From positions 32,001 through 96,000 of the forward strand of contig CAXXIN010000017.1 in assembly GCA_963665275.2 (NCBI GenBank): a stretch of DNA of 64,000 bases, given 5' to 3'. The translations under genes were made by a program, and so were the position numbers. Below the pieces are notes generated by a model. It ran no database searches, was not told the origin of the DNA, and saw only the letters and a program-made list of their open reading frames with translations. This DNA comes from Negativicutes bacterium (GTDB lineage: Bacteria; Bacillota; Negativicutes; UBA1444). Shown piece by piece: positions 21,941 through 58,742 of this stretch (its first letter is position 1; the number at the start of each line of letters is the position of its first letter).

Positions 21941-22081
21941 TTATCCATCATTTCGTTCTTCCAGTTCTCCTTCAATCGACAAATAGCGTTTTTTCAATTC
22001 ATTCGCCACACCTTCATCCGGGCACCACATTCCACGTTTCACTGCCTCCAGCAATTTTTCCGCGATACGCTGCCTTGTCAA
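21941..22081 (-). pseudogene. 46-codon remnant of the CobN C-terminus
   Basis: LTRQRIAEKLLEAVKRGMWCPDEGVANELKKRYLSIEGELEERNDG* aligns with CobN end RRIAEKLLEAQQRGMWEAKENTLDELRKLYLSIEGELEERSDG. Confidence 0.85.
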
Positions 22082-23385
22082 CCATCATTACTCCGCCGCT
22101 GCTTCTCCGCCGCAAAATTATTCCACAGGCGTTCCAATAGATTGGCTGCGCCACGCAGACCCATGAAAGGCCTCCCCGTGAGAATCACTTCGTCGTAAAC
22201 CGGCAAGGCAATGTTGCAACACACAGTCCCTGCTATCGATTGTTGACGCAAAAATGCTTTTTCACTGCCGCTCCCCAACAACAGGCCACCTGATAAGTTT
22301 TTCAGGCGGTTCTCGATTTCTTTACTGCTTGCCGCTCCATCCAAGATCGAATCCACATAGGATGGCATAGGACCGGCCATTGGCCCGTCATGCGCCACTA
22401 CCGTCAGTGCTCCAATGTCCGCCCACTCCAACCGTAAAGCCCGCGCCAGTCCTATCGCCACGGATCCCGGCGCTGCGACAACCGCTTGCTCGAACCAAAG
22501 ATCACCCCAGAACCGTTCCATATCCGCAATTGCCGTCCGAAATTCCTGTTGCCTGGAATTCGCTTCTTTCCGAAGAAAATTGCCTGCGGCGACCGGGTTG
22601 GAAGGGACATGAATTTTCAGCGTATCAATCCACGATACGGTTTGTTCGATTCCATACGGCGGCAACAGGGACACATAAGGCATATCGTATTGCTTCTGCA
22701 GTTGGCGCGCCAGTTCGCCTCCCAGTTCTTCATGCACAACGAGATTGATCGCAGCTCGTCGCATGAAAGCCATCTCGCCAACCGACGATCCCAATCCCGG
22801 CGAAACATGCAGCCGGTATCCAGCCATCAATAGTACCCGCCGCAGTTCCTCCAGATCAGTCACCGCATTGTAATAGCCAACCGAAAGCCCCAATAAATTA
22901 ACGGCCCTGGGATCTATCGCCGAGCAAGAGGGTAACTCCAGCATTTCAAAATACTTTTGAGTCGCTGCGCGATAACCTTCCCAAAACCCGCCGACAAGAC
23001 CGCCGCCATCCATGCATACTACCGGGCAGCCCAAATTCGCCTGACGTGCAATTCCTGCCAAATCATCACCAATAAGCCCCACCGAGCAATTATTAATAAT
23101 GAGAATCACCGAAGGTGAACACTTCTCTTTCAGCGTGTCCAGCGTCTCCAGCAAACAAGCCTCTGTGCCATACACAACCGCCTCATTATCCGCCTGCGAA
23201 CAAAAGAAACGTTCAGGTAACGAGGGACACTGTTTTTCCAAATATCTGCGAGCGTAAAAAGAGCACCATAGAGGCCCGTTGACCACCACCGCCGCATCGG
23301 GAATTCCCGCAAAAAAAGCTGTAGCTCCTGTTAGAGCGCAAGCGCTTACTTGCGTGCAAGCGTTATCCCATTCCGACTTAGCCAT
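22078..23385 (-). CDS. Nitrogenase-like component 1 oxidoreductase subunit (second subunit)
   Basis: SACALTGA, NGPLWC, VVYGTE..L, NNCSVGLIGDDL, VNLLG, PYGIEQT..W, PFMGLRGA. Confidence 0.9.
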   Translation of the reverse strand: MAKSEWDNACTQVSACALTGATAFFAGIPDAAVVVNGPLWCSFYARRYLEKQCPSLPERFFCSQADNEAVVYGTEACLLETLDTLKEKCSPSVILIINNCSVGLIGDDLAGIARQANLGCPVVCMDGGGLVGGFWEGYRAATQKYFEMLELPSCSAIDPRAVNLLGLSVGYYNAVTDLEELRRVLLMAGYRLHVSPGLGSSVGEMAFMRRAAINLVVHEELGGELARQLQKQYDMPYVSLLPPYGIEQTVSWIDTLKIHVPSNPVAAGNFLRKEANSRQQEFRTAIADMERFWGDLWFEQAVVAAPGSVAIGLARALRLEWADIGALTVVAHDGPMAGPMPSYVDSILDGAASSKEIENRLKNLSGGLLLGSGSEKAFLRQQSIAGTVCCNIALPVYDEVILTGRPFMGLRGAANLLERLWNNFAAEKQRRSNDG

Positions 23386-24676
23386 AAATGATTCCTCCCC
23401 TGTTGCCCCGCCGCTCTGCCAAGCGCACCATTAATTCCAGCAAATAAACGACTCCCCGCACCCCGACCAAGGGCTGCATTGGCAATAATAATTGGGGTTT
23501 CAACGGCTCCTCCAGCTCATGGGTTGATATGATGAAATCGGCTCCGCGCATGACATCCGACGTTTCCGTCGAACCAAGGATCGGGGCAATCGTCTGCCGA
23601 GGCAATTGCTCTCGCAAAGCCGTTTGCTGAGTAGTTGTCAGCGAATCCTCCAACAACACCACGCCACTCAGTCTAGCGCCGGACAGTTCGATCAGCTCGA
23701 ATACCCACGCCGGATCGAACAGCAGCAGGGAGCGACCAATGCAAAAAACAAGTTTTTTCCCCTGTAACCGAAGCGTTACTATTTGTAGTTGCTCATTAAG
23801 TTCCAATGTTTGTTCATTGATCGCTTCTAGCGCTACTGTTTTTTGATTCAACTGTTCACCCATGGCGAATAGCCAATCTCTCGTCCGACTCCAGCCAACG
23901 GGGTAATCTTCTTTCAGCCAAGCAGTTCCGAACATAGTCTGCAAATCGCCTGCAAGTTTTTCCATCCATGGTCTGGCCTGTGGTGAACCGCCTACCGGAA
24001 TATTGATCGCAGCGGCCGGAACGAGTTGCATTTCTTCGATGGATGCATTCGCCGGAAACAAACTGAATTCTTCAAACCCGAAATAGCTCGACAAACGCTT
24101 AATTTCGATAATATCCCGGGTATTGTATCCACCGCGGTCTCCTAAAATCGTAATTCGTTTTTCTTGACGTGGCCGTGGTGTCATAAAGCGCTCCGCCAAT
24201 ATGCGGGCAGAGTGATAAAATCCGGCGTAAAAATCGCCATCCAAAAAACTGTGACAAGGAATTGAAAGAATCGGAACTTGCCAATCTTTCTCGGCCTGCG
24301 AGGCCATCGCATCGACATCGTCGCCAATCACACCCGCCACGCAGGAATTGGCAATGACCACATAGCGAGGATGATATTTTTCCACAACCCAATCAATGCA
24401 TTTGCGCAGTTGTTCACTGCCGCCAAAGATCGAATGTTCTTCCCGCAGTGCGCTGCACACCAGCGGCGCCGTGTATTGTCCCGGTGTAAAATAGTCACGC
24501 CCTATGGACCGGTACTGTATCCCCAAATCCATCTCATGGGTGACGTGGGCGCAGGATCGAGGGCTATGATAGATAACCGCGGCGCCCTCATTGCGCGAAA
24601 CTGCGCGCCAAACGCCGGACATACTGCAACTGTGGCTTTTGTTGCGCAACCGGATTGCCCGTCTACTCGATACCAT
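23378..24676 (-). CDS. Nitrogenase-like component 1 oxidoreductase subunit (first subunit)
   Basis: HSCSMSG, HSPRSCAH, SIFGGSEQL, NSCVAGVIGDDV, PVGWSRT..WL; no Cys at the NifD FeMoco-ligand position. Confidence 0.9.
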   Translation of the reverse strand: MVSSRRAIRLRNKSHSCSMSGVWRAVSRNEGAAVIYHSPRSCAHVTHEMDLGIQYRSIGRDYFTPGQYTAPLVCSALREEHSIFGGSEQLRKCIDWVVEKYHPRYVVIANSCVAGVIGDDVDAMASQAEKDWQVPILSIPCHSFLDGDFYAGFYHSARILAERFMTPRPRQEKRITILGDRGGYNTRDIIEIKRLSSYFGFEEFSLFPANASIEEMQLVPAAAINIPVGGSPQARPWMEKLAGDLQTMFGTAWLKEDYPVGWSRTRDWLFAMGEQLNQKTVALEAINEQTLELNEQLQIVTLRLQGKKLVFCIGRSLLLFDPAWVFELIELSGARLSGVVLLEDSLTTTQQTALREQLPRQTIAPILGSTETSDVMRGADFIISTHELEEPLKPQLLLPMQPLVGVRGVVYLLELMVRLAERRGNRGGIIYG

Positions 24677-25475
24677 AGTCCAGCACCAACTTTTCCAATT
24701 CATCAAAACTTAAGGGTGCCGGTATATTCAAAACCTCATTTTCCATAATGAAGCTTGCCAATTGGCGATATATCTGCGCCTGGTTGGCTTCAGCATTCCA
24801 CTGAATCACCGTTTGCTTATGAATCTCCGCCTGATGCACCACCTTGTCCCGAGGAATGAACGCAACCAACCGGGTATTCAGCCGAGATGCAAAATCGCTC
24901 AACAATTCCCGTTCATTATCGATAGCACGGCTGTTGCCGATGATTCCACCGATGCGCACTTTCCCCCGTCCCGCAAAACGGGCAATTCCTTTGGCAATAT
25001 TATTGGCTGCATACAGCGACATCAATTCACCGGAAGACACGATATATATCTCTGTCGCGTACCCTTCCCGAATCGGTACGGCAAACCCGCCGCATACCAC
25101 ATCGCCCAATACATCGTAAAGAACCAGCTTCTCATCGGTAATGACATTTAGTGCCCGCAGTTTTTCCAGCGCCACAATAATCCCGCGACCGGCGCAGCCC
25201 ACACCAGGTTCCGGCCCACCCGCCTCCACACATTGCACCCCATTGAATCCGTTATGCACGATTTGCTCGACAGTAATATCGTCGCCTTCAGCACGAACCG
25301 TATCCAGAACCGTATGCGGACACACCCTGCCAAGCAGCAGTCGGGTTGAATCGTTCTTGGGATCGCAACCGATTTGGCAGACCGGATATCCCTTCTCTGC
25401 CAGCGCTGCCGAAACATTAGCCGCTGTCGTCGATTTTCCAATCCCGCCCTTGCCATAAAACGCAATTTTCTTCAT
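24663..25475 (-). CDS. NifH-family iron protein (group IV, nitrogenase-like reductase component)
   Basis: YGKGGIGKSTT, GCDPKNDST, EAGGPEPGVGCAGRG, DVLGDVVCGGFAVPIREG. Confidence 0.95.
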   Translation of the reverse strand: MKKIAFYGKGGIGKSTTAANVSAALAEKGYPVCQIGCDPKNDSTRLLLGRVCPHTVLDTVRAEGDDITVEQIVHNGFNGVQCVEAGGPEPGVGCAGRGIIVALEKLRALNVITDEKLVLYDVLGDVVCGGFAVPIREGYATEIYIVSSGELMSLYAANNIAKGIARFAGRGKVRIGGIIGNSRAIDNERELLSDFASRLNTRLVAFIPRDKVVHQAEIHKQTVIQWNAEANQAQIYRQLASFIMENEVLNIPAPLSFDELEKLVLDYGIE

Positions 25476-25884
25476 GCCAAACTTATTCCTTTCTTCCCTA
25501 TCCCCTGAATTTATGGTTGAAATCAGCAGGTGCGCATTAGTCCGTATATAGGAATAACGACGAGTTAATTCCCGTCGCTGACAATCTTCCCTATTCTCTT
25601 CAATGTCGCCATCAGGTGCGCCATTTTATTTCGCCGCTGTCCAAATACGAAATTCCTTCCCCAGGGCTCATTATTTTTTCTTTAGGCTTGGGCTTGGAGG
25701 GATACGCCCTGCAGCGCTTATATCATCCCTCCGTTATTTCCCATTCACGGGAAAACTCCCAAGTTCCGCGGGGCAAATCATCGGTGAACGCGTCCACCAT
25801 CCGCAATTCATCCCGCCGAATTGCACGGGTGTATTCGACTGCGCTCCTGCTGCAGTATGATTTGACATTGAAAAGGCAATGGTT

Positions 25885-26223
25885 CTATGCCTGACTGATA
25901 ATTTGGACGCCAGCAACGCCAAACGCCTGCTTAAGCGGCGTAATGAAATTTCTCTCCAACAGAGACCGGTGGAACTCTTTATCGGTTACGATGCGCAAAA
26001 ACGCACCATCTCGGCGCATTCCGACCAATGTTTCAATGTACTTGCCGAAATCCTCTTCACCAATCAGCCCTTTCAGAGCTTCCAGTTCCGGTTGCAATTC
26101 CTGTCGGGCTGCCACCAGCCGGGAAGATAACGGAGTAAATGCTTCCATGTGCAGTCCCGGTGAATTCATGACCGACAAATTTTCTTCAAACTCTTCAGGT
26201 TGCATTTCGCGATGAAGTAACAT
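25885..26223 (-). CDS. Hypothetical protein
   Basis: ORF with AAGGAGG RBS before MLLHREM; directly follows the 93-aa ORF. Confidence 0.7.
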   Translation of the reverse strand: MLLHREMQPEEFEENLSVMNSPGLHMEAFTPLSSRLVAARQELQPELEALKGLIGEEDFGKYIETLVGMRRDGAFLRIVTDKEFHRSLLERNFITPLKQAFGVAGVQIISQA

Positions 26224-26257
26224 AACTCGACCTCCTTCGCACATAATTGAAGTGTTT

Positions 26258-26557: not shown

Positions 26558-27733
26558 CTATTTGATTTCAAATGGAGATATCCCTTCCATGCTCTGGGAC
26601 CGAACCTTGGCAAATTCGTCGATATACCGCTGCACCGCCATCGTGGCCGACAATCTTCCGCCAATCACATCGCTTTCCAATGTTTTACGGCAGGTAATGA
26701 TCTCCGGCGCGCGATAAAACAGATTATGCAAATGCTCCTCGACCATGGCGTACACCCAGGAAAGGGTCTGTTGTTTGCGGCGCTCCGCCAAAACGTCATT
26801 AGCCTGCCCCTGCGCCATGAATTTCATGATCACATCGTTCCACAATTCTTTGATCCCGTCGCCAGTCATCGCCGAGCAGGCAAACGCTTTCGTTTCCCAT
26901 TGATCGGTAGCCTGGCGGATAAAATATAAAATTCGTTCATATTCGGCGCGGGTGACTAGCGCTCTGCGCCGGTTGTCCCCATCGGCTTTGTTGACCACAA
27001 CGGCGTCGGCAAGTTCCATCACGCCTTTTTTCATGCCTTGCAGCTCATCGCCGGCCCCGGTAATGACAACAAGCAGGAAAAAATCGACCATGGATCGCAC
27101 GGTGGTTTCGCTTTGGCCGACCCCTACTGTTTCTACCAGGATTGTGTCATAACCGGCTGCTTCGCATAAAAGCAAAGTTTCCCGGCTTTTTCGCGTCAAT
27201 CCGCCCAAGGTTCCCCCTGACGGGGAGGGCCGGATGAACGCATTTTTTTCGCGCGACAGTTGTTCCATACGTGTTTTGTCGCCCAGGATACTACCTTTGG
27301 TGACAGTGCTGGACGGATCAACCGCCAGCACTGCTACCCGATGGCCACTTTGACACAGATAGGTTCCCATCGCTTCAATGAATGTACTTTTACCAGCACC
27401 AGGAAAACCGGTAATACCCACCCGAGTCGATTTTCCAGTGTAAGGCAAGAGCTTTTGAATGACTTGTTGCGCCACTTCAAAATGAGCCGCTGCATTACTT
27501 TCGACCAGCGTAATCGCCCGGGAAAGGATCATGCGGTCGCCGCCGAGCACGCCCGCAACATAATCCTCCACAGTCAATTTACGCCTTTTGATTACTGGAG
27601 CCGTATTTTTTATCGGCTCAGTCCGGCTATTCGGCATTCCATCATGGCCGCCATTGACGCCGCACATTACCCGGCACGCAAATTTATCGTCGTCATTTTT
27701 CGGCGCCCATTCCGGCTTGTAAATTTCAGTCAT
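26558..27733 (-). CDS. meaB: Methylmalonyl-CoA mutase-associated GTPase MeaB
   Basis: LSRAITLVES, GITGFPGAGKST, AVDPSS..GSILGDKTRM, ETVGVGQSE, GDELQGMKKG. Confidence 0.95.
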   Translation of the reverse strand: MTEIYKPEWAPKNDDDKFACRVMCGVNGGHDGMPNSRTEPIKNTAPVIKRRKLTVEDYVAGVLGGDRMILSRAITLVESNAAAHFEVAQQVIQKLLPYTGKSTRVGITGFPGAGKSTFIEAMGTYLCQSGHRVAVLAVDPSSTVTKGSILGDKTRMEQLSREKNAFIRPSPSGGTLGGLTRKSRETLLLCEAAGYDTILVETVGVGQSETTVRSMVDFFLLVVITGAGDELQGMKKGVMELADAVVVNKADGDNRRRALVTRAEYERILYFIRQATDQWETKAFACSAMTGDGIKELWNDVIMKFMAQGQANDVLAERRKQQTLSWVYAMVEEHLHNLFYRAPEIITCRKTLESDVIGGRLSATMAVQRYIDEFAKVRSQSMEGISPFEIK

Positions 27734-27737
27734 ATCA

Positions 27738-29927
27738 TTACTCCGCGAGTCTCTTGGACAATTCTTCAAGCACTTTCTTGGCGCAAACCGGAATGATGGT
27801 GCCAGGTCCAAAAATTGCCGCTGCGCCGTGTTCTTTGAGGAACGCGTAATCCTGCGCCGGAATAACGCCGCCGATCACGACCATGATATCTTCGCGACCG
27901 CGCTTCTTCAGTTCTTCGATCAACTGCGGCATCAACGTTTTATGACCGGCAGCAAGTGAACTCATCCCGACAATGTGCACGTCGTTGTCCACAGCATCCT
28001 GTGCCGCTTCTTCCGGTGTCTGGAACAAAGGACCGATATCAACGTCGTATCCCATATCCGCGAAAGCGGTCGCGATGACCTTCGCTCCGCGATCATGTCC
28101 ATCCTGGCCCCATTTTTGCGATCATGATACGAGGCCGGCGACCTTCGTGTTTTTCGAACTCATTCGCCAAGTCCCGCACTTCTTTGATGACGTCTTCATC
28201 TGCGAATTCACTGCTGTAAACGCCGGAAATAGAGCGAATGATCGCTTTATGACGACCGCAGACTTTCTCCACCGCATCGGAGATCTCGCCCTTGCTGGCG
28301 CGAGCCCGCGCTGCGTTAACAGCCAGTTCCAGCAAGTTGCCTTCGCCGGTTTCCATGGAATGAGTGATGGCATTCAACCAGTGTTCTACATCCTCTTGGT
28401 TTCGATTTGCGCGCAATTTTCGAAGTCGTTCGATTTGCGACAGCCGCACGGCGGTATTGTCGACTTCGAGAATATCCAGCGGATCTTCTTTTTCCAGCCG
28501 GTAATCATTCACGCCGACGATTTTTTCGGCGCCGGAATCGATATGAGCCTGCCGACGGGCGGAAGCTTCTTCGATTCTCATCTTCGGCAATCCGGTATCG
28601 ATGGCTTTGGACATACCGCCCAGCGCTTCGACTTCCTGTATATGCGCCCCAGGCGCTTCGGATCAGCTGGTTGGTCAGGGCTTCCACATAGTAGGAACCG
28701 CCCCAGGGATCGATGACTTTGCATACCTTGGTTTCATCCTGAATGTAGAGCTGCGTATTACGCGCAATACGGGCGGAAAAGTCGGTCGGCAAAGCGATCG
28801 CTTCATCCAGCGCGTTGGTATGCAATGACTGTGTGTGACCCAGCGCCGCCGCCATGGCTTCGACGCAGGTACGGGTAATGTTGTTGAACGGATCTTGCTC
28901 GGTCAGGCTCCAGCCGGAAGTCTGCGAGTGGGTACGCAGCGACATGGATTTTGTTTTCTTCGGGCCGAACGAATTGACGATTTTTGCCCAAAATCACGCG
29001 AGCGGCACGCATTTTTGCCACTTCCATGAAATAGTTTTTTCCAATCGCCCAGAAGAATGACAGCCGGGGAGCAAATTGGTCAATCTGCAGACCGTGTTCT
29101 GTACCGGTTCGCAGATATTCGAGACCGTCGGCCAACGTGTAGCCCAGCTCGATATCCGCAGTGGCTCCGGCTTCCTGCATGTGATAGCCGGAAATACTGA
29201 TGCTGTTGAATTTTGGCATATAGGCCGATGTATACTCGAAAATATCGCCGATGATACGCATGGAAGCAACGGGAGGATAAATATACGTATTTCGCACCAT
29301 GAACTCTTTCAGGATATCGTTCTGAATCGTACCGGCCATGATTTTTTTATCCACGCCCTGCTCTTCGCCCGCCAAAATATAGAAGGCCAGGATAGGAAGC
29401 ACTGCGCCGTTCATGGTCATTGACACCGACATTTGATCCAGTGGGATACCGGAGAACAGGATTTCCATGTCCAGGATCGAATCCACAGCCACGCCTGCCT
29501 TGCCAACATCGCCGACAACACGAGGATGATCGGAGTCATAACCCCTGTGAGTGGCAAGGTCAAAAGCGATGGACAGACCTTTTTGCCCGGCAGCCAGATT
29601 CCGGCGATAGAAAGCGTTACTTTCTTCGGCTGTGGAAAAGCCTGCATATTGACGGACCGTCCAAGGCTTCGTGACATACATCGTAGGATACGGCCCGCGC
29701 AGATACGGCGGCACACCCGCCATATACATCAAATGCTTGCAATCTTTGTAGGCTCTTTCGTCATACAACGGATCGAGGTTGATTTGCTCCATCGTCCGAA
29801 AAATATTTGCCTCGAACGATTTACCGGTTTCCCTTTCCAGATTGGCCTTCCATGCGTCATAACCTGATTGTCCGGGATTCGCCGCCTTGTGAAAGGGAAT
29901 TGCGCCAAAATCAGGAAATTTAGCCAT
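27738..29927 (-). CDS. mutB: Methylmalonyl-CoA mutase large (catalytic) subunit, about 3 single-base frameshifts
   Basis: [55 protein letters not shown](Q)[18 protein letters not shown] spread across consecutive frames. Confidence 0.92.
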
Positions 29928-29928
29928 C

Positions 29929-32097: not shown

Positions 32098-32262
32098 ATA
32101 GTTAGCCTCTCTCTTTTCAAAAGTTGTAGTTTTGAAAAACAACTATTCGCTTAAAAATTCTCCCAATCGCTTGGTTCAACAGAGTTTACATCCCCCCAAT
32201 CTTCCTTTTCAGACTTTCTACTTGATATTTATGTGGAAAATGGCTTGGATTAACTCATCTCA

Positions 32263-32366: not shown

Positions 32367-32444
32367 TACTTCGCAAAACTTAAGCAACGCCGTCGCCTTA
32401 CGCGAGTCCCCTCCCCCATCGCTCGCGGGTAAAAACGGTGACTC

Positions 32445-32617: not shown

Positions 32618-32658
32618 AGTTGTCAAACATCATATCCAACTACGCAACCATTTAAAGC

Positions 32659-33372: not shown

Positions 33373-33395
33373 AGGCCTATGCAATTTACGGTCTT

Positions 33396-48526: not shown

Positions 48527-48829
48527 TCAGCGCTCCTCCACCGAATCCGTGTAGTCACTTTCATAACGAACAAAATGCTCAAAATCATCCCGCCGGGGAA
48601 AACTAATCGCGGCAGACGGGCACTTTGGCACACATCCGCTGCATAACACCACGCATTCATATGGATGGGAAACGATTGGCTTGCCTGTTGATTCATCCAA
48701 GGTATAAACCCTTTTCGGGCAGAATTCGAAACATACTTTGCAGCCGATGCACCGAGTAGCATCAAGCGTCGGGTACCATTCAATCTGATCCCGGTCTACC
48801 AACAACGTCCGTTTTCGACGCACCTGCAT
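48527..48829 (-). CDS. 2[4Fe-4S] ferredoxin
   Basis: CIGCKVCFEFCP and CVVLCSGCVPKCP. Confidence 0.88.
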   Translation of the reverse strand: MQVRRKRTLLVDRDQIEWYPTLDATRCIGCKVCFEFCPKRVYTLDESTGKPIVSHPYECVVLCSGCVPKCPSAAISFPRRDDFEHFVRYESDYTDSVEER

Positions 48830-48842
48830 TTTTTCACCCGCC

Positions 48843-51157: not shown

Positions 51158-52811
51158 ACTGGACCACCTCCTCCACGCAGAGGGCGCATCCGCCGTATAA
51201 TTCACGGGAAACCCGCAGCGCAGCCGGAGCCCGCAGCCCTGCCAGACGCAAAACCTCTTCGCTGGAAAACACGTCTCGCGGTGGAGCGTCAGCAACAATT
51301 CGTCCAGCCGTCATGACCACCACTCTCTCGGCGTAGCGGGCCGCGACCTCCGTATCATGCGTGCAGAAGATGACAGTCCCGCCTGAGGCGGTATATTCCT
51401 GCAACAGCGCAATAATATCGTCAATGTGTCCCAAATCCTGTCCGGTCGTCGGTTCGTCCAGCAACATGATATCCGGCTTATACGCCAATAGCGCAGCAAT
51501 AGCCACCCGTACCCGCTGCCCTTGGCTTAGCGCCAACGGGAATCGTTCTCCCATGCCGGCCAGACCTATTTTTGCCAGTAATAAACGCCATTCGCCATGA
51601 TCGGGCGCATTTTGGCCGCCATGATGCAAGCCGAATGTGATTTCTTTCTCTACAGTAGAATTAAACAGCATTAAATCCGGATTCTGCATAACCATTCCGA
51701 CCCGCCGGTCCAGCGACTTGACTACCTGTCCATCCACTATCACTTTTCCAGCCTGTGCCTGCTGCAACCCGCAAATATGATGCAACAAGGTTGACTTGCC
51801 TGCTCCATTGTTGCCCATAAGTGCGACAAATTGCCCGCAGGGGACAGTCAAATGGATGCCGTCAAGAATTTTTCGTCCCCGAGGATCGTATCGGAAGTCC
51901 AATCCTTGGATCTCTATCGCGATATTTTCCGTCGGAACCGGAATCGTTTTCACAGGCACTCGCACAGCCACCTCACACTTTGGATAAGCCTTGCGAATAT
52001 CGTGAACCGCATCCTCAACCGAAGCGCTCTGCGACAAAACACCCAGTCCGTGGCAAATATGGACTGGCTGAGGAATTCTCAGGCCCATATCCAGAAATAC
52101 TCCGGGGCTGCGGAACGCCTCCTGTCGCTTTCCCTGCCAAGAAATCCCTCCATTTTCCATTACCAGCACATGTTTGCAAAGAGGCATCACCTCATGCAAA
52201 CGATGTTCAACAATAATCAGGGTTATTCCAAGCTCCTGATTCAGTTTCTGCAAAACCTGCAACAATTCCATTGCACCGCGTGGGTCCATCTGGCTGATTG
52301 GCTCGTCCAACGCCAACATCTTCGGCCGGACGGCGAGTACTGCCGCCAACGCCAATCGTTGCCGCTCCCCGCCGGACAAGGCGTGCACACTGCCCTGCTC
52401 TCGCCCCGACAAGCCAACCCAACCCAGTGTTTCCTCCACCCGCTCTCGAATTGCCTGCCGTTCCATGCCCATGTTTTCCAGCGCGAATCCGACTTCATCC
52501 GCAACCGTTGTCGAAAATATCTGATCGTCGGGGTTTTGGAACATCAAGCCCACCGTACGGCTCAATTCTGCTACGGAGGATTGCAACGAATCCACCCCGT
52601 CCACCAGTACGCTTCCGCGTAGCGTTCCGCTGATTTCGTGGGGAATCAGCCCATTAAATGCTTTTAACAATGTACTCTTCCCACAACCGGTCGGCCCGGT
52701 GCACAAAATAAAATCGCCTGCTTCGATTGTCAAATTAATATTGGCAATGCTGGGAATTGATCGAGTCTTATAAGTAAAAAACAGGTTTTTGCATTCCACA
52801 ATCCCGGTCAT
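51120..52811 (-). CDS. ECF transporter fused double ATPase
   Basis: GPTGCGKST and GNNGAGKST, FQNPDDQIF, LSGGERQR, LDEPTTGQD. Confidence 0.92.
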   Translation of the reverse strand: MTGIVECKNLFFTYKTRSIPSIANINLTIEAGDFILCTGPTGCGKSTLLKAFNGLIPHEISGTLRGSVLVDGVDSLQSSVAELSRTVGLMFQNPDDQIFSTTVADEVGFALENMGMERQAIRERVEETLGWVGLSGREQGSVHALSGGERQRLALAAVLAVRPKMLALDEPISQMDPRGAMELLQVLQKLNQELGITLIIVEHRLHEVMPLCKHVLVMENGGISWQGKRQEAFRSPGVFLDMGLRIPQPVHICHGLGVLSQSASVEDAVHDIRKAYPKCEVAVRVPVKTIPVPTENIAIEIQGLDFRYDPRGRKILDGIHLTVPCGQFVALMGNNGAGKSTLLHHICGLQQAQAGKVIVDGQVVKSLDRRVGMVMQNPDLMLFNSTVEKEITFGLHHGGQNAPDHGEWRLLLAKIGLAGMGERFPLALSQGQRVRVAIAALLAYKPDIMLLDEPTTGQDLGHIDDIIALLQEYTASGGTVIFCTHDTEVAARYAERVVVMTAGRIVADAPPRDVFSSEEVLRLAGLRAPAALRVSRELYGGCALCVEEVVQYVQQTSLGSNAC

Positions 52812-52814
52812 TGT

Positions 52815-54485
52815 TCAATCACTCCCCACGTCGGCCAAGCGACTGCCGAGCAATAACCCGCACCCCGCTCCAATCATCGTATAGAAAAAACCGTTGACCG
52901 CCATCACCATGTAGATATACCAATCCGCATAATAAAGTCGATATAGTACAGCCATCCCCTGCATTGTGACATAGGTGGCTGCTGTGTCCGCCAGTGCGCA
53001 GGCCAGCGCCAGTATAACCATCCTGCGAAGTGTAAAGCGTATTGGTTCCGCCTCCTCCATCCGGGCCGATGTAAAACCGGTGGCAGCCAACGCCAATTCA
53101 AGCAGAAAAGCATTCACACCATAAGACAGCAATACAATCGGCGACATGTGTCCAAACGCGACCATGCCGAGCAGCATACGGATCGCCGCCATCAATGTAA
53201 CTACGCCGTGAAGCGGGATCAGGGTAATCAACGCACCGGTCAGCATATACAGCATGACGCCGCTAAACATCCCTGTAAGCAAGAAGCCGAACGGGCCGAG
53301 AAAAATATGAAAAAAATCATTCAATAACGTTGAAGGAACGTTCACCACCGCAAAAGCGCAGGTTCCAAACAAGGCGATCGTAATCAGGCGACGCGTTTTC
53401 ATGCCGGCCAGTACGAACGGCAATCGCTTGGCAATCAACACCAGAAACGCCAGAAGCATCAGCAAGGCAATTCCGAGGGTAAACAAGCCCCGCATGTTTT
53501 TCTTGACTACCACGATAGGCGTCTCTCGGGACCACACTTGAGTCTCGCCATCCTCAACCGTGACCCGCAGCAAATATTTTCCCTCGGTCAATAGCGATTC
53601 ATCGGCATAAATCGGCAATAACAACCGTTGCCGCGCCTCGCCGGTCAAAGCGACAAACGCTGTCAATCGCTCCTGATTTGCCGCCATCGCGCCTGCCCCG
53701 TCGTTATCGGAATTACTACCGGGAGTGTATAAGCCGGGGACTTTTCGATGAGTGTTTTTATCGAGAAGTTCCGCTTCCACTATCACCAGTTTTTGCTGCC
53801 CTGCAGGATTGCTGAAATCCAGTCCCATATGGCTTACTGGATGGATGGCCTCTATTTCCAGATTCGAAACGCCCTTGCCGCGCAGTATGTTTTTGAAATA
53901 GTCCAGCGAACGGTCGCGCAGCACCAAAGCACTGCCATTTTGTTTCTCATCACGTTTTCCATCTTTGTCCAGCGGCAAAACAATTTGTTCAAAAACCGGA
54001 GCTTGTCGAGGTGAAACACCTGAAGCCGGAGGTGCTACCGTCAAGGCAATACTCTTTGACATTCCATCAACAACAAGCCGAATCGGCTGTGCGCCAATTA
54101 CCATATTTTCATCGACAGTCAGCGTCAGAAAATCAAACCACTGACCATAGCCGCCAGCTAGTACAACAGTTTTTGTAATCGCCTGCCCACTCTGCCGAGA
54201 TGCCATCTGCCAGTTTTCCTGTCGCTCCGACAAAGTAATCCCTGCAGGAAAAAGGATTTCGACTGGAACGATGCGTTCTTGCGAGGCGGTGTTCTCAATG
54301 CTGAAAACCGCATGAATGGTTTCCCCCGGCGCCGCTGTCATTTGGTTCCGCCCCAGTGAATAGGGAATCTCCAGCGTTGCGTTGATCCCTGGCGCTTCTG
54401 CGGCCAGGCAAGGCAATGTTCCCCATAAAACTAGGCCTGCCACATATAGCAGGTTGAAATGTTTCAGCCATTGGTAAATCCGCAT
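52815..54485 (-). CDS. Putative ECF substrate-specificity component fused to a large extracytoplasmic domain
   Basis: Signal peptide, ~320-aa beta-rich soluble region, then ~7 TM helices; lies directly before ecfA/ecfT. Confidence 0.65.
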   Translation of the reverse strand: MRIYQWLKHFNLLYVAGLVLWGTLPCLAAEAPGINATLEIPYSLGRNQMTAAPGETIHAVFSIENTASQERIVPVEILFPAGITLSERQENWQMASRQSGQAITKTVVLAGGYGQWFDFLTLTVDENMVIGAQPIRLVVDGMSKSIALTVAPPASGVSPRQAPVFEQIVLPLDKDGKRDEKQNGSALVLRDRSLDYFKNILRGKGVSNLEIEAIHPVSHMGLDFSNPAGQQKLVIVEAELLDKNTHRKVPGLYTPGSNSDNDGAGAMAANQERLTAFVALTGEARQRLLLPIYADESLLTEGKYLLRVTVEDGETQVWSRETPIVVVKKNMRGLFTLGIALLMLLAFLVLIAKRLPFVLAGMKTRRLITIALFGTCAFAVVNVPSTLLNDFFHIFLGPFGFLLTGMFSGVMLYMLTGALITLIPLHGVVTLMAAIRMLLGMVAFGHMSPIVLLSYGVNAFLLELALAATGFTSARMEEAEPIRFTLRRMVILALACALADTAATYVTMQGMAVLYRLYYADWYIYMVMAVNGFFYTMIGAGCGLLLGSRLADVGSD

Positions 54486-54498
54486 GACTTCTCCCCTA

Positions 54499-55188
54499 CT
54501 ATCGCAAATCAAAGACCACAGGCAATGTAGCCCAGGCTGCCACCGGCGCCCCTTTTTGCAACGCCGGGCTAAAGCGCCAGGACCGAACTGTGCGTTGCGC
54601 CGCCGCATCCAGTTCCCCATAACCTGAACTACTCACTACCCGGACGTCTTCCACCCGTCCTTCCGTATTGACTAGTATCTGAAGTTTGACCGTTCCTTCC
54701 CAGCCTTTAACCCGCGCATTTTCCGGATACTCCGGTCGCCCGCCCTCAACGATTCGCGGCCCCCGTGTCGGTCCGGATCCGCTTCCTGTGCCCGGTCCCA
54801 TTCCCGTTCCTTGCCCAGCGCCGGTTCCGCCACCCGTCCCGCCGCCGCTCCCCCCCGAGCCGCCTGCGCCGCCGCGGCCTCCCGCCGGTGCAGCCGGAGT
54901 GGAAGTTGCTGCCGATCGAAGATCCGTCACTCCAGCGAAGCTATTATGGGATTGTGGCGCAGTTTGATTATCCGCTGGCCTTGGCGCGCCCATTGGCGTA
55001 CCGCCTCCCCCGGCAGCTCCATCCACCGGCGAAAGCAATTCGGCCATTGTCACTTCCACATAGATCGGCTGGCGTGACTGAACAGCTTCCCAACTCCAGA
55101 ACGCGCCCGCCGCCGCAACCAAAATGACATGAAGAAGCAGCGAGCCGACCAGTGCCGCCCGCCACCGCTTTTGATCGTCCATCATCAA
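54499..55188 (-). CDS. tonB: Energy transducer TonB
   Basis: TM SLLLH, Gly-rich linker, PEYPENAR..GWEGTV..SSG..LD.AA..WRFSPA. Confidence 0.92.
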   Translation of the reverse strand: MMMDDQKRWRAALVGSLLLHVILVAAAGAFWSWEAVQSRQPIYVEVTMAELLSPVDGAAGGGGTPMGAPRPADNQTAPQSHNSFAGVTDLRSAATSTPAAPAGGRGGAGGSGGSGGGTGGGTGAGQGTGMGPGTGSGSGPTRGPRIVEGGRPEYPENARVKGWEGTVKLQILVNTEGRVEDVRVVSSSGYGELDAAAQRTVRSWRFSPALQKGAPVAAWATLPVVFDLR

Positions 55189-55586
55189 CCTTTTGGGTCC
55201 ACGGCAAGCGAAATTTTTCCCGCACCGGCGCGTTTCACGGCGTCAATGACTTCCACCACTTTGCCGTGATGGGAGTCTTTATCTGCCTTGATGAAAACCA
55301 GCGGGTGGCTGTGAACTTTCGCCGCCACAGTTGCCGCCAGTTCACCGACCGAAACCTGTTGATCGCCCACCGCGATTTTCCCGTCCTTGTTTACCAGAAC
55401 CGTGATGTGTTCCGGCGGCTGTGGCGTACCGCTTGCTGCCTGTGGCGGCGTGATGTTGAAGCCGGGGTGGGCCGCCAAAAAGGTCGTAGACATCATGAAA
55501 AAAATCAGCAGCAGCATCATGACATCGACCATCGGTGTCATATCAACATGTACCGGCGCATGGGGTGATTCCCTTCGATAACGCAT
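55185..55586 (-). CDS. exbD: Biopolymer transporter ExbD
   Basis: DMTPMVDVMMLLLIFFM, IKADK, VVEVIDAVKRAG. Confidence 0.92.
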   Translation of the reverse strand: MRYRRESPHAPVHVDMTPMVDVMMLLLIFFMMSTTFLAAHPGFNITPPQAASGTPQPPEHITVLVNKDGKIAVGDQQVSVGELAATVAAKVHSHPLVFIKADKDSHHGKVVEVIDAVKRAGAGKISLAVDPKG

Positions 55587-55603
55587 GGAAAGCTCTCCTT
55601 CCT

Positions 55604-56194
55604 CTAGGCGCCGGCGCGTCGGACGATCTCGCCGACGCAGCCTTCGGTCCAGTGCAGCAGCCGTTCTACCCGGTTGCGAAAATGATTGTTGGCAATGATG
55701 CACGGGATAGCGACCAATAGCCCACCCGCTGTATTGTACAGGGCTTCGGAAATCCCTTCCGCCAGCATTTGCGGATTTCCGAGGCCAGTCATTGATGCGG
55801 CCTGAAAAGTTTTGATCATGCCCAGCACTGTGCCAAGAAGTCCGAGCAACGGCGCCACCGTGGCAGCTGTGGTGAGCATATACAAGTTGCGCTCCAGCAC
55901 GGGGATTTCCGCCCGAACGGCATCATCCACCGCGTTCTGGCGAGCTTCCCTTTCGGCCGGAGGAATCACGGCAGCTGCTTCCCACATTTTAGCGAACACC
56001 GCGTTCTCCGACCCACGATACAGAACTCCGGCGCTGCCTGACGCCGATTCTTTCAGCCAATCCCGGAAGGTCTTGGCGGCCGCATCGGCTGATCGGTAAA
56101 ATAATCCTCGTTCGATAATGACCGCGCAGGCCACCAGAGAACAGGCCATGATAACGACAATGACGTAGCCGCCTTTGGCGATGATTTCTAACAT
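55604..56194 (-). CDS. exbB: ExbB/MotA/TolQ proton channel
   Basis: APLLGLLGTVLGMI..F, GISEALYNTAGGL.VAIP. Confidence 0.93.
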   Translation of the reverse strand: MLEIIAKGGYVIVVIMACSLVACAVIIERGLFYRSADAAAKTFRDWLKESASGSAGVLYRGSENAVFAKMWEAAAVIPPAEREARQNAVDDAVRAEIPVLERNLYMLTTAATVAPLLGLLGTVLGMIKTFQAASMTGLGNPQMLAEGISEALYNTAGGLLVAIPCIIANNHFRNRVERLLHWTEGCVGEIVRRAGA

Positions 56195-56203: not shown

Positions 56204-58259
56204 CTAAAAATTCTGGGTCAGTTTCAGGTAAAATGCCCGTTCCGGCGTAATATATCCGCCATCATTCGTATAATCAATGCGGTTGAAAAGATTTTCGACG
56301 CGTAGCGTCAATTGCGTATTTTTTGTAACATCATAATTGAGCATCAGGTTCGCTTGCAGGGATGGGGGTATCGCACCTGAGCTGACGGTAGCTGGAGCGA
56401 TCGGAGACAACAACTGTCGCATCCCGACATAGGTCGCCGCCAGACTTCCCGACCATTTCCCCTTGCGGTAATTCAGACCGGCATTCAATTGCAAGTTTGC
56501 CTCCGACTGTTCCCATTCCGCAGCGTTCTGTGTCTTCGCTTCCGGGTTGCCATACATAGCACCCAGGGAAAACCCCCAGCCGCCTTTTAGCGACCGTGCA
56601 TATTCAACTTCCATGCCCAGGTTGCGGAATTGGGCGTTTTGCGATTGGTAATTTTTCACGGTCGAGGTTCCCAAATTCACCCATTGGTGCAGGTTGGAAA
56701 AATCCAGCTTATAGACGGCCACTTTTAAAGAATCCGATTCGCGGATTTTTTTCCAGCCGATTTCATATGTCCAGCCCGTATCCGGTTCCAAACTCGGATT
56801 AGGAATTGTTAATGTTGAACTGGAAAACATCGCCGTCCAATTTGGCGCCCGGAATGATTTGCCCACATTCAGATATAACGACTGATCTCGGTTTAGTTTG
56901 TGCAGTATTTGAAACTGCGGACTGACTTGCCCATAATTATCCAAATTATTTTGTTGCGCGATGATATCCTGTCGCAATCCAAGGATGAAATTCGTCTTGG
57001 CCGACAGCGGATGATCGATTTGTCCGAAGAACGAAAACAGGTCGCGCTGTTTCAGTGGTATTGCAGTAGTACTGCCTAAAAACACATTGGTTGAATAGGT
57101 GTCTTTTTGCCAGGACAATCCGGCGGTGTAGGATCCAAACCCGGTTTTCCAGGTGCTTTGACTATCCGTGCCATACGTCTGCATATATTGCCTTGAATTC
57201 GATGCAGTCAACTTGGCTCCATTTGTGCTTAAACTGGCGATCGGGGCTGTGTTGGCTTGGTTTCGCACCAGCCCGTTGTAGTAAAGTTTATGTGTCCAGG
57301 AGCCGGAGCGGATTTGCAACGAAGTGATATCGTTGGCGTCCTGTTGCCACATGGTTCCCAGGCTATCGTCCTGTTTCCAGGCCTTGCCCGCCAATCCACC
57401 TGTGGACGCAACCAGTTTTGACAATTGAAAGGTATCGTCGATATGTCGATAATTCCACGTAATTGCATCTGTAATCGCCCATGTAAAGTCAAAGGTTTGC
57501 TTCGACTCATAATCGAAGTTCGTATAATAAGGCGCATAAGCAGTGGTCGTGGTCGTTGTCTTGCCTTTTGTTGTCGTCGTCGTAGAAGTGCTGTAGCCCG
57601 GTCGCGTCGTTTGCATCGCTCCCATGTTTCCGGTATAGTCGCGATTATAGGATACATAGAACTTCCCTGCCTGCAGTGAAAGGCTTTCCCGATTCGTGCC
57701 AAAGCTGCCGACTTCTACGGAAGCACTGCTTTGTCCAGATTTCTTCGTAATGACATTGATAACTCCGCCCATGGCCGCGCTACCATATAACGTCGATGCG
57801 GCTCCTTTGACAATCTCAATACGCTCTATGCTGTCGGTGGGTATATTCTGCAGTTCATACTTTCCATTCCAATTGATGGGGATTCCGTTAAGCAACACTA
57901 ATGCACTTAGATCTTTCCCCATGCCCCGGATGGAAACACCGCCGGTCATACCGCTGTAAAGCGATCCACGCGCGCCATAGGTATCAATCGTGACCCCAGT
58001 GGAAAACTTCAGCGCTTCCAGAACATTGGTCGCGCCGGTCTCCTTTATTTTTTCGCGGGTCAGCACCTCCACGGCGGCCGGCGTCGTCAGTTCTTTTGAT
58101 TCACGCCGCAAAGCAGTCACCAACACCGGATCAAAACTGTATTCCTGATTTTCCTCCGCCATCGCCAGGCCCGATGTCACGAGGCACAATACTCCCTGCC
58201 ATCAACCCCGCTACAGTTCTCCGCGACCAATTCCGGGCCCACTTCTTGCTCAGCTTCAT
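56204..58259 (-). CDS. TonB-dependent receptor (frameshift in signal-peptide region ~58195)
   Basis: VLVTA TonB box, plug IERIEIVKGAASTLYGS.AMGGVINVITK, NPSLEPD, VENLFN, C-terminal F; start MKLSKK at 58259 with AGGAG RBS. Confidence 0.92.
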
Positions 58260-58340
58260 TCTCGCAACTCCTTCAAAAATCATATGCCCAAAGTCTCTAT
58301 TTCTAACCATTCCAAAAGATTGGAACGTTGATTTTTTTAT

Positions 58341-58418
58341 GGAGGCCTCCCCCTGAAAAGAGACCTCCGGCTAATGAATCCACGCCCTAGCTAAAAAGAC
58401 GTGAAATTCGGGTAACGC
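58341..58418 (-). repeat. Two-hairpin element, copy B
   Basis: Similar to 40781-40862; ~80 nt upstream of the receptor start. Confidence 0.6.
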
Positions 58419-58571
58419 TATAAAAAAAGAATAGCTCCCTGGTGTGGGAGCTATTCCGGACAGCTGGCTGTCTTTTGATAAAAAATCCCGGCAAAATATG
58501 CCGGGAAGAAGTTCAACACAGGAGCTGCGCCAAAATCCCCTCCCCATCGCGCGTGGGTAAAACGGTGATTG

Positions 58572-58742
58572 TCAGACAGGCAGTTCTCCTGGCTCTGGAT
58601 CATAGCTCGCCCAAACCTTCCCAAGATTTTTCATCCCAGTGGCATTTGATGGGTTTGCTCCCCAATACAGTGGCGGGACCGCGCCGGCATTACAACGGAC
58701 TTCCCTATTAAGCCCCTCAGGGCACCTATCCCGATATGAAAT
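58572..58742 (-). ncRNA. Cobalamin riboswitch 5 (upstream of TonB receptor-ECF-cobN operon)
   Basis: Near-identical to riboswitch 4, including the downstream tandem terminators at ~58422-58507. Confidence 0.95.

Follow-up and report, generated by a model that had tools for sequence, protein, structure and literature searches.

The 64,000-nucleotide window analysed here (positions 32,001 to 96,000 of contig CAXXIN010000017.1, assembly GCA_963665275.2, from a Negativicutes bacterium of the UBA1444 lineage) carries an island of operons behind cobalamin riboswitches. Judged from its sequence and that of its relatives, the island on balance probably serves as a vitamin B12-starvation system that imports a corrinoid and processes it with a CobN chelatase and ChlI/ChlD-type motors (CobN-ChlID), a SPASM-type radical S-adenosylmethionine (SAM) enzyme and a nitrogenase-like trio of proteins, NifH-like, NflD and NflK (NflHDK); a corrinoid is the most likely substrate. 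What is new relative to the literature searched is the tie of a P-cluster-type nitrogenase-like clade to this chelatase and corrinoid set. A preliminary description of the window had proposed one undescribed system of tetrapyrrole import, metal handling and ring reduction. All the elements that it listed are present where it placed them or close by, and its one-system idea gains partial support from co-occurrence, synteny and B12 control in relatives, while "undescribed" holds only in part, as will be seen.

The evidence that carries this reading comes from relatives. In a survey of the class (401 sampled genomes from 110 genera, with NflK-like proteins called at E 1e-30 or better), NflK-like proteins are found in 124 of the 401 genomes and in 37 of the 110 genera, and CobN in 172 of the 401 genomes. 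The two occur together in 114 genomes; 10 have NflK only, 58 CobN only and 219 neither. Thus CobN is present in 114 of 124 NflK-positive and in 58 of 277 NflK-negative genomes. A carbon-nitrogen hydrolase shares this distribution: its orthologue occurs in 68 of the 401 genomes, 66 of which have CobN and 64 NflK, and it lies no more than 2 kb from a cobN in 27 genomes (coordinates read by eye).

Synteny was followed in 20 kb around 20 matches from about 15 families and in contig L027. (L-numbers denote loci in relatives, G-numbers genomes, with G000 the source genome, and C-numbers contigs of the source genome.) Since L066 duplicates L028, the set comprises 21 distinct loci; the window proteins were mapped onto them, and 65 of the 94 remaining unassigned open reading frames (ORFs) were scanned with Pfam, those omitted being mostly at locus edges or already scanned. 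Within 20 kb of the trio there is a BtuF-like protein in 16 of 21 loci, cobN in 13, CbiZ (PF01955) in 11, a PF01261 CbiR-like TIM-barrel protein in 8, CbiK in 8, an orthologue of the SPASM enzyme in 7 and chlI/chlD in 6. The orthologue of the window SPASM gene stands beside cobN in 7 of 21 loci. The carbon-nitrogen hydrolase appears in 6 of 21, always adjoining CbiZ, cobN, chlI or the SPASM gene; a CobA/BtuR adenosyltransferase appears in 4 of 21, and a BacA-type ATP-binding cassette (ABC) transporter in two by Pfam and in a third by tblastn. In L073, L075, L077 and L078 the genes form a co-directional run, nifH-nflD-nflK-btuF-(fecCD)-cobN-SPASM-(chlI-chlD). Co-occurrence and neighbourhood across the class had been named in the preliminary description as its own test, and the modules do keep one another's company in both.

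In this class the trio regularly belongs to the B12 regulon, because a cobalamin riboswitch (at the Rfam gathering score) directly precedes its operon, which starts with orf119 or cbiK, or with the nifH-like gene itself, in 16 of the 21 loci. In L062, L063, L067 and L076 a cytoplasmic CbiK is co-transcribed directly upstream of the nitrogenase-like genes behind the riboswitch; in relatives, CbiK just upstream of the trio is mostly without a signal peptide, BtuF-like neighbours have lipoprotein signals, CobN has none, and most CbiZ proteins have none. Three loci of one genus (L062, L063 and L070) have nflD/nflK or a lone nflK-like gene behind riboswitches with no nifH-like gene nearby, and a second nflK-like copy there stands behind a riboswitch of its own. 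In two distant relatives, L027 (7062-8312) and L075 (5915-7170), the trio is accompanied by a small CMD-like ORF and by a regulator of the MerR family whose effector domain may be GyrI-like; L075 is without a riboswitch there. A CarH-like, B12-binding MerR regulator taking the place of the riboswitch was considered for these two loci and rejected, since no B12-binding domain is found at E 0.01. In L064 (genome G180; 5460-9284 and 13580-14918) the neighbours of the trio include an ATPase of the BcrAD/BadFG type together with an HgdD-like and a ferredoxin-like membrane protein; the BcrAD/BadFG-HgdD type is another type of ATP-driven low-potential reductase. The same locus holds two cobN fragments resembling a decayed copy.

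In the window, genes were assigned by Pfam and NCBIfam scans of minus-strand ORFs and by inspection of translations; the genes, remnants and riboswitches of the island all lie on the minus strand. Five riboswitches had been claimed from the letters alone, and the Rfam scan upholds every one: the five RF00174 matches are full length (model 1-189) and score 101-115 bits, with E values of 4e-24 to 5e-28, against a gathering score of 31.5 bits. Only seven cobalamin riboswitches exceed threshold in the whole assembly, and five of them are in this 26 kb stretch. Riboswitch 1 (58562..58744; 101.2 bits, E 3.9e-24) precedes the uptake and CobN operon, comprising a TonB-dependent receptor, ExbB, ExbD, TonB, a 601-residue membrane protein, the ATPase and T component of an energy-coupling factor (ECF) transporter, a beta-propeller protein, a ferredoxin, CobN and a HemN-like protein. 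Riboswitch 2 (43033..43214; 108.7 bits) stands ahead of the genes for a signal-peptide-bearing CbiK and an outer-membrane barrel protein. Riboswitch 3 (40417..40600; 114.6 bits) precedes the SPASM radical SAM gene, the ChlI-like and ChlD-like genes and an ABC-2 exporter with its membrane-fusion protein. Behind riboswitch 4 (33193..33375; 111.8 bits) there is nothing but a small zinc-ribbon ORF (32659-33015; zf_Tbcl, 71.9 bits), which is garbled by indels. Riboswitch 5 (32435..32620; 112.8 bits) precedes an operon for the two subunits of methylmalonyl-CoA mutase and MeaB (26558..32120, with MeaB at 26558-27811; MM_CoA_mutase, B12-binding and MeaB families), followed by orf119 and the trio. The components named in the preliminary description (receptor, ExbBD and TonB, ECF transporter, CobN, ChlI/ChlD, exported CbiK, SPASM enzyme, ferredoxin and ABC exporter) are all recovered by these scans and the inspection of translations.

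Transcription of the trio seems to start at riboswitch 5 and to read through the mutase and MeaB genes: in a pattern scan the strand is free of terminator-like sites from MeaB to the nifH-like gene, ahead of which no RNA family, a decayed riboswitch included, is matched at E up to 1. The placing of a B12-dependent enzyme operon (mutase and MeaB) behind a cobalamin riboswitch, which recurs in L059 of the same genus, is an observation in its own right; it is an unusual target for a switch that normally shuts genes off when B12 is present.

All three genes of the trio are intact in the window. The NifH-like ATP-dependent reductase component (24663..25475; PF00142, 360 bits) scores below the cut-offs of the nifH model TIGR01287 (382.1 vs 394.35) and of the CfbC model (376.2 vs 402), is 60% identical to the source genome's own NifH (contig C18), matches the solved chain 6nzj at E 7e-97 and is close to true NifH. 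The catalytic subunits, NflD-like (23378..24706; PF00148, 161 bits) and NflK-like (22078..23385; PF00148, 175 bits), have their best solved relatives at E 1.5e-17 and E 4.8e-18, respectively, and are both far below all NCBIfam cut-offs. Upstream lies orf119 (25885..26244), a small conserved ORF of 119 residues that matches no family over cut-off and has homologues upstream of the trio in L027 (74%), L059 (54%), L076 (40%) and L077 (31%). When NflD and NflK are aligned with their orthologues and with the source genome's own NifD/E and NifK/N, C27, C52 and C122 of NflD, present in 20 of 20 sequences, fall in the columns of the NifD cysteines, and C16, C41 and C100 of NflK, present in 22 of 22, in those of the NifK cysteines; by the Azotobacter numbering, these columns are taken to be the P-cluster ligands. 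The column of the iron-molybdenum cofactor (FeMo-co) cysteine, Cys265 of the genome's own NifD and Cys247 of its NifE, holds cysteine in 0 of 20 NflD sequences. This rules out a true nitrogenase NifDK or NifEN, which would have the cysteine ligand of FeMo-co or its precursor. Most group IV enzymes likewise keep the P-cluster cysteines and have lost the FeMo-co ligands (PMC13474568), and NflDK, with its six P-cluster cysteines and no FeMo-co cysteine, has the group IV type of pattern, which differs from those of group VI, DPOR, COR and CfbD. Membership of group VI is ruled out by the retention of six of six cysteines and the 60% identity to the genome's own NifH. CfbCD and DPOR/COR are ruled out by the cysteine pattern and by model scores (CfbD, 35 vs 268; BchB, 57-83 vs 490; BchN, 44-45 vs 324-420; BchZ, 60 vs 529).

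Under one alternative the trio has a task of its own, perhaps the reduction of organosulfur compounds known from other group IV enzymes, and merely travels with a mobile B12 island. The characterised P-cluster-type nitrogenase-like enzymes do act on sulfur compounds (PMC13474568); NflK is patchy even within the source genus (3 of 11 other genomes), and the gene remnants described below speak of frequent rearrangement. A passenger would hardly be expected, however, to have the riboswitch directly ahead of its operon in 16 of 21 loci, to share co-directional operons with cobN and importer genes, and to be accompanied by CobN in 114 of 124 genomes; we regard mere co-location as unlikely.

The 1244-residue CobN (44790..48524; PF02514, 1279.6 bits), a class I chelatase large subunit, is the only full cobN copy in the source genome. 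It passes the CobN equivalog cut-off of TIGR02257 (991.7 vs 822.05 bits) and also just reaches that of the BchH model (829.3 vs 829 bits). Its nearest solved chains are CobN (767 bits, 7c6o, and 724 bits), followed by ChlH (517) and HmuS (395.5, best stretch at residues 799-1230); by inspection it has no signal, membrane or N-terminal hydrophobic segment and is predicted to be cytoplasmic. Its motors would be the ChlI-like AAA+ chelatase ATPase (38182..39210; TIGR02030, 438.8 bits; TIGR02442, 511 bits) and the ChlD-like subunit, with AAA+ domain, proline-rich linker and VWA domain (36487..38169; TIGR02031, 373.7 bits; TIGR02442, 581 bits; VWA_2). These do not reach the BchI and BchD equivalog cut-offs (438.8 vs 466.95 and 373.7 vs 499.55), and their make-up of AAA+, lid and VWA domains matches the family. 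By its sequence the window protein is a CobN-type class I chelatase with ChlI/ChlD-type motors, because it passes the CobN cut-off, is nearest to solved CobN and is without the membrane anchors of HmuS and BtuS. Membership of the HmuS/BtuS dechelatases is ruled out by its length of 1244 residues, the absence of a membrane segment and an HmuS match of 395.5 bits.

That assignment bears on a further alternative, a harvest of heme or porphyrin like that of the Bacteroidota Hmu/BtuS systems, in which imported heme would lose its iron to CobN and the exported CbiK and the HemN-like protein would open the ring. CobN-like proteins in Bacteroides TonB loci do remove heme iron (PMC12583661, PMC6460266), relatives of the exported CbiK bind heme (9b86, "Heme-binding protein FetB", E 4e-39), and the HemN-like gene product gives a sub-threshold match to HutW. 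Yet the operons are controlled by cobalamin riboswitches and not by iron; the window CobN, of 1244 residues, is predicted to be cytoplasmic, is accompanied by ChlI/ChlD and resembles true CobN most; relatives have corrinoid enzymes next to the set (CbiZ, the PF01261 protein and CobA); and no HemN-like gene is found in any of the 21 related loci. A heme harvest is accordingly very unlikely.

The remaining enzymes are less sharply defined. The exported CbiK-type class II chelatase (41869..42822; PF06180, 329.7 bits) has a signal-like N-terminus and scores below the NCBIfam CbiK equivalog cut-off (275 vs 400). Its MGHG and AGDHA motifs align to residues 145 and 207 of 1qgo, and both catalytic histidines are kept; those of the Salmonella enzyme are His145 and His207 (PMC7689651). 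The SPASM-type enzyme (39223..40401; Radical_SAM, Fer4_12), whose true start is probably near residue 44, has its best NCBIfam matches among SPASM maturases and AhbC/AhbD/NirJ, all below cut-off (AhbC, 76.8 vs 650; AhbD, 65.2 vs 500; NirJ, 61.7 vs 515); the top match is PapB (128.9 vs 340), and the protein belongs to no named family. The HemN-like radical SAM protein (43269..44552) is of the PRK08629 family (NF006385, 471.4 bits, cut-off 355) and scores 169 bits on the HutW model, whose cut-off is 400.

These parts can be assembled into a provisional scheme. Low adenosylcobalamin would release the operons from their riboswitches. A cobalt tetrapyrrole, most likely a corrinoid, would cross the outer membrane with the help of the TonB receptor, ExbBD and TonB, the exported CbiK and the beta-barrel protein, and would be taken through the inner membrane by the ECF transporter here and by BtuFCD- or BacA-type importers in relatives. 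Cytoplasmic processing would fall to CobN with its ChlI/ChlD motors, the SPASM enzyme and the NflHDK reductase, to which relatives would add CbiZ, the CbiR-like phosphodiesterase and the carbon-nitrogen hydrolase for stripping of loop and amides, an adenosyltransferase and a cytoplasmic CbiK. The corrinoid might thereby be trimmed to the level of cobyrinic acid a,c-diamide, the form recognised by CobN-type proteins; CobN-ChlID would then handle the cobalt, by insertion or removal, NflHDK would deliver ATP-driven low-potential electrons to metal or ring, and the SPASM enzyme would modify the product. Products or leftovers are possibly expelled by the ABC-2 pump, and the net gain would be cobalt or a corrin core for B12 supply.

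How the island relates to the cell's own B12 synthesis is indicated by the distribution of CbiD, used as marker of the anaerobic cbi pathway: it occurs in 358 of the 401 genomes and in 121 of the 124 that are NflK-positive. The module therefore normally stands beside a complete early-insertion pathway and is no substitute for a missing one. The window itself contains no corrin methylase, amidase or nucleotide-loop gene by Pfam (minus-strand ORFs of at least 100 residues in 20114-58189 and 21 flanking ORFs), as the preliminary description had it, and the four TP_methylase matches in the source genome are all on other contigs. A riboswitch-cbiL-cbiK-cbiM-cbiQ-cbiO operon lies on C3 at 87900-92400, and C5 has at 55000-57200 a riboswitch and two CobT-like genes, the second of which matches only the C-terminal part of the model; no further cbi pathway genes are found. 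Two genomes of the same genus have a cbi cluster, about 14 kb long, whose flanks are homologous to C13:70850-73547 on one side and to C4:160334-161377 on the other. In the source genome the C4 flank coincides with the end of its contig at 161386, and the C13 flank runs into other genes. The absence of the cluster from the source genome may thus be a real rearrangement, or it may be a gap of assembly or binning.

The near-universal presence of CbiD among carriers is also what would be expected if the set boosted de novo synthesis, CobN-ChlID serving as an ATP-driven forward cobaltochelatase when B12 and cobalt are scarce and NflHDK reducing an endogenous cobalt isobacteriochlorin from the factor to the precorrin level, with the transporters and hydrolases no more than co-regulated neighbours. 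The NCBIfam cut-off and the nearest solved chains both place the window CobN in the CobN type; a cytoplasmic CbiK stands directly upstream of the nitrogenase-like genes behind the riboswitch in the four loci named above (L062, L063, L067 and L076); and there is the analogy to CfbCD, which acts after CfbA in F430 synthesis. It is harder to reconcile with such a booster that btuF/fecCD importer genes are interleaved between nflK and cobN in single operons, that no partners keep closer to cobN than the carbon-nitrogen hydrolase and CbiZ, enzymes of degradation or remodelling, and that the trio is present in at most 124 of the 358 CbiD-positive genomes, so that the pathway does without it. Moreover, G108 (99% complete) retains NflK, two cobN genes and the hydrolase, and CbiD, CbiC and CbiB are not found there. 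We consider this explanation doubtful.

A different division of labour may apply, though we consider it less likely than not: imported corrinoids would be stripped of loop and amides, CobN-ChlID, aided by NflHDK and radical SAM chemistry, would run as a reverse chelatase, the cobalt would pass to CbiK, and the ring remains would be exported. Hydrolases that would take a cobamide back to the a,c-diamide level adjoin cobN; cobalt uptake normally lies within B12 regulons; nearly all carriers make B12 de novo (the CbiD count just given, 121 of 124); cbiK is co-transcribed with the trio in relatives; and the ABC-2 exporter follows chlD in the window and nflK in L059 and L074. To our knowledge no enzyme is known that removes cobalt from a corrin, which counts against cobalt retrieval, the reaction being chemically hard, as does the fact that the window CobN is far closer to the forward enzyme than to HmuS (767 vs 395 bits); the role of the hydrolase, too, is guessed from its superfamily alone. 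Within the chelatase superfamily there is nonetheless a precedent for reverse action in HmuS (PMC12583661). Should retrieval be what the set does, it might represent the first anaerobic pathway that dismantles foreign corrinoids for their cobalt, by import, removal of loop and amides until cobyrinic acid a,c-diamide is reached, extraction of the metal by CobN-ChlID as an ATP-driven reverse chelatase with super-reducing electrons from NflHDK and a radical SAM enzyme, and delivery of the cobalt to CbiK; this more specific proposal, too, we consider less likely than not.

Several findings weigh against the preferred reading of the island as a B12-starvation system for corrinoid import and processing. 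The sampled genomes are related and not independent, so the cross-tables overstate the association of NflK with CobN. The trio of the window has no riboswitch of its own in the Rfam scan, and its co-transcription from riboswitch 5 is deduced from a pattern scan alone; no riboswitch lies near the nifH-like gene in L072, L074, L075 and L078, and in L059 the nearest one is 6.8 kb upstream of the trio, ahead of the mutase operon as in the window. B12 control of the trio stands on the 16 of 21 related loci and not on the window's own arrangement. CbiD, CbiC, CbiB and CobS are not found in the source genome, nor, by tblastn, are CbiZ, the CbiR-like PF01261 protein, the carbon-nitrogen hydrolase or BtuF. 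On the siderophore, hemin and B12 models of NCBIfam the TonB receptor reaches similar scores, all below cut-off, and receptor and binding proteins cannot be assigned by sequence to corrinoid over heme. CbiZ, CbiR-like proteins, BtuFCD- and BacA-type importers and CobA in relatives tie the set to imported corrinoids. Finally, co-location within a B12 island does not prove one common substrate.

The island also records its own history. Directly at the NflK stop codon begins a cobN 3' remnant (21941..22084) encoding 43 C-terminal residues, 30 of 43 identical to CobN residues 1198-1240 (E 3e-16) and 84% identical to cobN over 32 nucleotides. Further on lies a hemN-like 3' remnant (21243..21597), 84.5% identical over 355 nucleotides to 43281-43634, with protein identities of 77% and 84% in two frames; between the two remnants are a 79-residue ORF (21689-21928) and then a terminator-like hairpin (21654-21674). 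A cbiK fragment of 31 residues sits in the cobN-hemN spacer (44664..44756; PF06180 positions 198-228, E 2.6e-9), is 72% identical over 29 residues to the exported CbiK and adds to the signs that the island was rearranged in the past. From the cobN, hemN-like and cbiK remnants it follows, as far as sequence can tell, that a second cobN-hemN unit once lay behind nflK and has been mostly deleted. That the stub marks a lost second cobN is argued by the nflK-cobN neighbourhood common in relatives; the reductase of NifH and two further subunits with a cobN stub directly after it, and the former adjacency of trio and cobN deduced from it, were thus correctly recognised in the preliminary description. 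In a wastewater relative with many substitutions (short-read run X5, compared over window 22073-26353) the orf119 region is missing, with a 392-base skip, and a riboswitch-like sequence stands directly behind nflK where the window has the cobN remnant.

Comparison with known systems shows where familiar ground ends. As in CfbA/CfbB/CfbCD of F430 synthesis (group IV-B), a chelatase of the CbiK/CbiX family and an ATP-dependent nitrogenase-like reductase would work on one and the same metallated tetrapyrrole; the CfbC model gives the NifH-like protein 376 bits, and cbiK is co-transcribed with the trio in several relatives. Unlike CfbD, which works without a K subunit, the window set has separate D and K subunits with three P-cluster-type cysteines each; it is, moreover, bacterial, riboswitch-controlled and accompanied by a class I chelatase, and the loci examined hold no homologue of CfbB or CfbE. 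The combination of BchHID with the DPOR BchLNB (group V) is comparable in composition: a class I chelatase with ChlI/ChlD-type AAA+ proteins, a three-subunit nitrogenase-like reductase and a radical SAM enzyme in the same pathway. Here, however, the chelatase large subunit matches CobN better than ChlH (767 vs 517 bits), the BchN/BchB scores of NflDK are far below cut-off, there are no other pigment genes, and the six cysteines differ from the DPOR pattern (PMC13474568).

Like the CobN of CobNST, the window CobN passes the CobN equivalog cut-off; unlike it, it has no CobS or CobT with it, and the link to nitrogenase-like, SPASM and amidase proteins is no part of CobNST. The classical CobNST substrate, hydrogenobyrinic acid a,c-diamide, is not expected here because relatives use early insertion with CbiK. 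CobN with ChlI/ChlD was reportedly predicted in 2003, by Rodionov, as the cobaltochelatase of anaerobes, and the window CobN, B12-controlled and beside ChlI/ChlD-type ATPases, resembles that prediction. A 2003 proposal of B12-regulated CobN with ChlI/ChlD, and of a "BtuS" class of CobN-like salvage proteins, is cited in PMC6460266, where "BtuS" is proposed for metalloporphyrin salvage. In the HmuS/BtuS systems of Bacteroidota, as in the window set, the gene for a member of the CobN superfamily accompanies that of a TonB-dependent receptor for tetrapyrrole import; the HmuS/BtuS proteins exceed 1400 residues and have transmembrane segments at both ends and a periplasmic body (PMC12583661, PMC6460266). 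HmuS works with NADH and a membrane fraction and is linked to iron, whereas the window CobN has ATPase partners and is B12-controlled. Among exported CbiK proteins (CbiK^P of Desulfovibrio vulgaris, 2xvx; FetB, 9b86), the window protein shares the CbiK fold family, the signal peptide and both catalytic histidines, but it is nearest to cytoplasmic Salmonella CbiK (E 9e-55) and not to 2xvx (E 4e-42), and its gene lies behind a riboswitch together with one for an outer-membrane barrel. Of the cobamide-remodelling enzymes, CbiZ and the PF01261 protein lie inside the same operons in relatives, with neither found in the source genome; CbiR belongs to PF01261 (bioRxiv 10.1101/2020.09.02.280537), and the PF01261 proteins of relatives are CbiR-like by superfamily.

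Group VI of the Elusimicrobia is likewise an uncharacterised nitrogenase-like trio near a radical SAM gene, with a proposed tetrapyrrole substrate (10.1101/765248, PMC13474568). Of the six P-cluster cysteines, group VI proteins keep four at most, and the identity of their NflH to NifH is about 40% (PMC13474568), as against six of six and 60% for the window set. The word cobN has 0 occurrences in the group VI preprint (10.1101/765248), and in PMC13474568 a tetrapyrrole context is mentioned only for group VI. No nitrogenase-like enzyme tied to cobN or to corrinoid salvage was found in open-access papers and bioRxiv. B12-regulated CobN-ChlID, exported CbiK, CbiZ and CbiR are thus already known; of the claim that the system is undescribed, the part that stands is the nitrogenase-like link, absent from the literature searched, and the part that falls is the B12-regulated CobN-ChlI/ChlD and "BtuS", proposed in 2003 (cited in PMC6460266), together with the exported CbiK.

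The partnership matters because most nitrogenase-like clades have no assigned function, which is named as a main challenge of the field in a 2026 review, according to which gene context has so far been of little help and carriers are often uncultured (PMC13474568). Here a clade with full P-cluster ligands, present in about a third of the sampled genomes of its class, is given a sharp context of B12 riboswitch, CobN-ChlID, SPASM enzyme, amidase and corrinoid importers, and such a recurring partnership is a testable clue to the job of the nitrogenase-like enzyme. It bears on the old puzzle that a late-type CobN is retained by anaerobes whose cobalt insertion is early and done by CbiK, and on the contest for cobalt and corrinoids in anoxic communities. 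If cobalt retrieval were true, an orphan nitrogenase-like clade would have a function and the presence of CobN in early-insertion anaerobes would be explained.

The uptake genes behind riboswitch 1 begin with the TonB-dependent receptor (56204..58189; Plug and TonB_dep_Rec_b-barrel domains), ExbB (55604..56194; PF01618, 106.9 bits), ExbD (55185..55703; PF02472, 108.6 bits; its true start is probably later than that of the ORF) and TonB (54499..55188; TonB_C, 91.9 bits; TIGR01352, 83.4 bits, over cut-off). By tblastn with the island proteins, receptor and TonB are the sole copies in the assembly, and ExbB has one weak second match. The 601-residue membrane protein (52815..54620), in which inspection of the translation shows a signal-like N-terminus, some 330 residues of extracytoplasmic domain and a C-terminal multi-helix domain, is a candidate ECF substrate-capture (S) component: it matches no Pfam or NCBIfam family, an atlas search gives a weak lead to PF09819 at a fairly high score, and it is kept with the ECF genes in L061 at 48% identity. 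The ECF double ATPase (51120..52811) exceeds the cut-offs of TIGR04520 (401.8 bits, cut-off 315) and TIGR04521 (400.6 bits), and the T component (50270..51298; PF02361, 100.6 bits) is of the CbiQ family. There follow a beta-propeller protein anchored by an N-terminal hydrophobic helix (48843..50279; PQQ_2, 49.3 bits), whose gene stands beside ECF genes also in L061 and L065, and a 2x[4Fe-4S] ferredoxin (48527..48961; Fer4 families), conserved in L061 at 64% identity; L061 thus carries the same ECF/beta-propeller/ferredoxin cassette as the window. The barrel protein behind cbiK (40894..41850), a predicted outer-membrane beta-barrel of 318 residues with a signal-like N-terminus and C-terminal Phe, belongs to no family and has two paralogues on contig C13. 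The ABC-2 exporter (33770..36310; ABC_tran, ABC2_membrane, HlyD) consists of an ATPase (35423-36310), a permease (34683-35423) and a membrane-fusion protein (33770-34666; TIGR01730, 124.7 bits, over cut-off).

The source genome assembly (3.97 Mb, 20 contigs, 92.6% complete) has single-base errors that touch some of these genes. In the ORF scan of the window the methylmalonyl-CoA mutase genes appear split over six or seven frames, while those of L059 are intact at 728 and 759 residues. Short-read contigs from public runs X1 and X2 have zero substitutions relative to window 21000-33500 and lack a single base at 29 or more homopolymer sites; the 12 located among these lie at about 28000-33100, and removal of these 12 extra bases by script gives a single mutase frame of 735 residues. 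The frame breaks are therefore assembly errors, since the short-read contigs are without the extra bases and their removal restores the frame, and decay of the mutase genes to pseudogenes is ruled out. Single-base homopolymer insertions thus occur in the window at least in 28000-33100. The zinc-ribbon ORF behind riboswitch 4 has five single-base differences from the short-read contigs, and the stretch holding the trio and the remnants at most four. The 5' end of the TonB receptor gene (about 58190-58290) is probably distorted by an assembly indel too, a signal-peptide-like stretch lying upstream of the receptor ORF in a different frame, and gene starts and ends elsewhere in the source genome may be distorted likewise.

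Outside the island, at 14181-19915, the window encodes an ABC transporter of the Opp/Nik type, made up of a binding protein of family 5, two permeases and a double ATPase, with a protein bearing an FmdE domain and a zinc finger within the operon and no riboswitch nearby; it could be an importer of metal or peptide.

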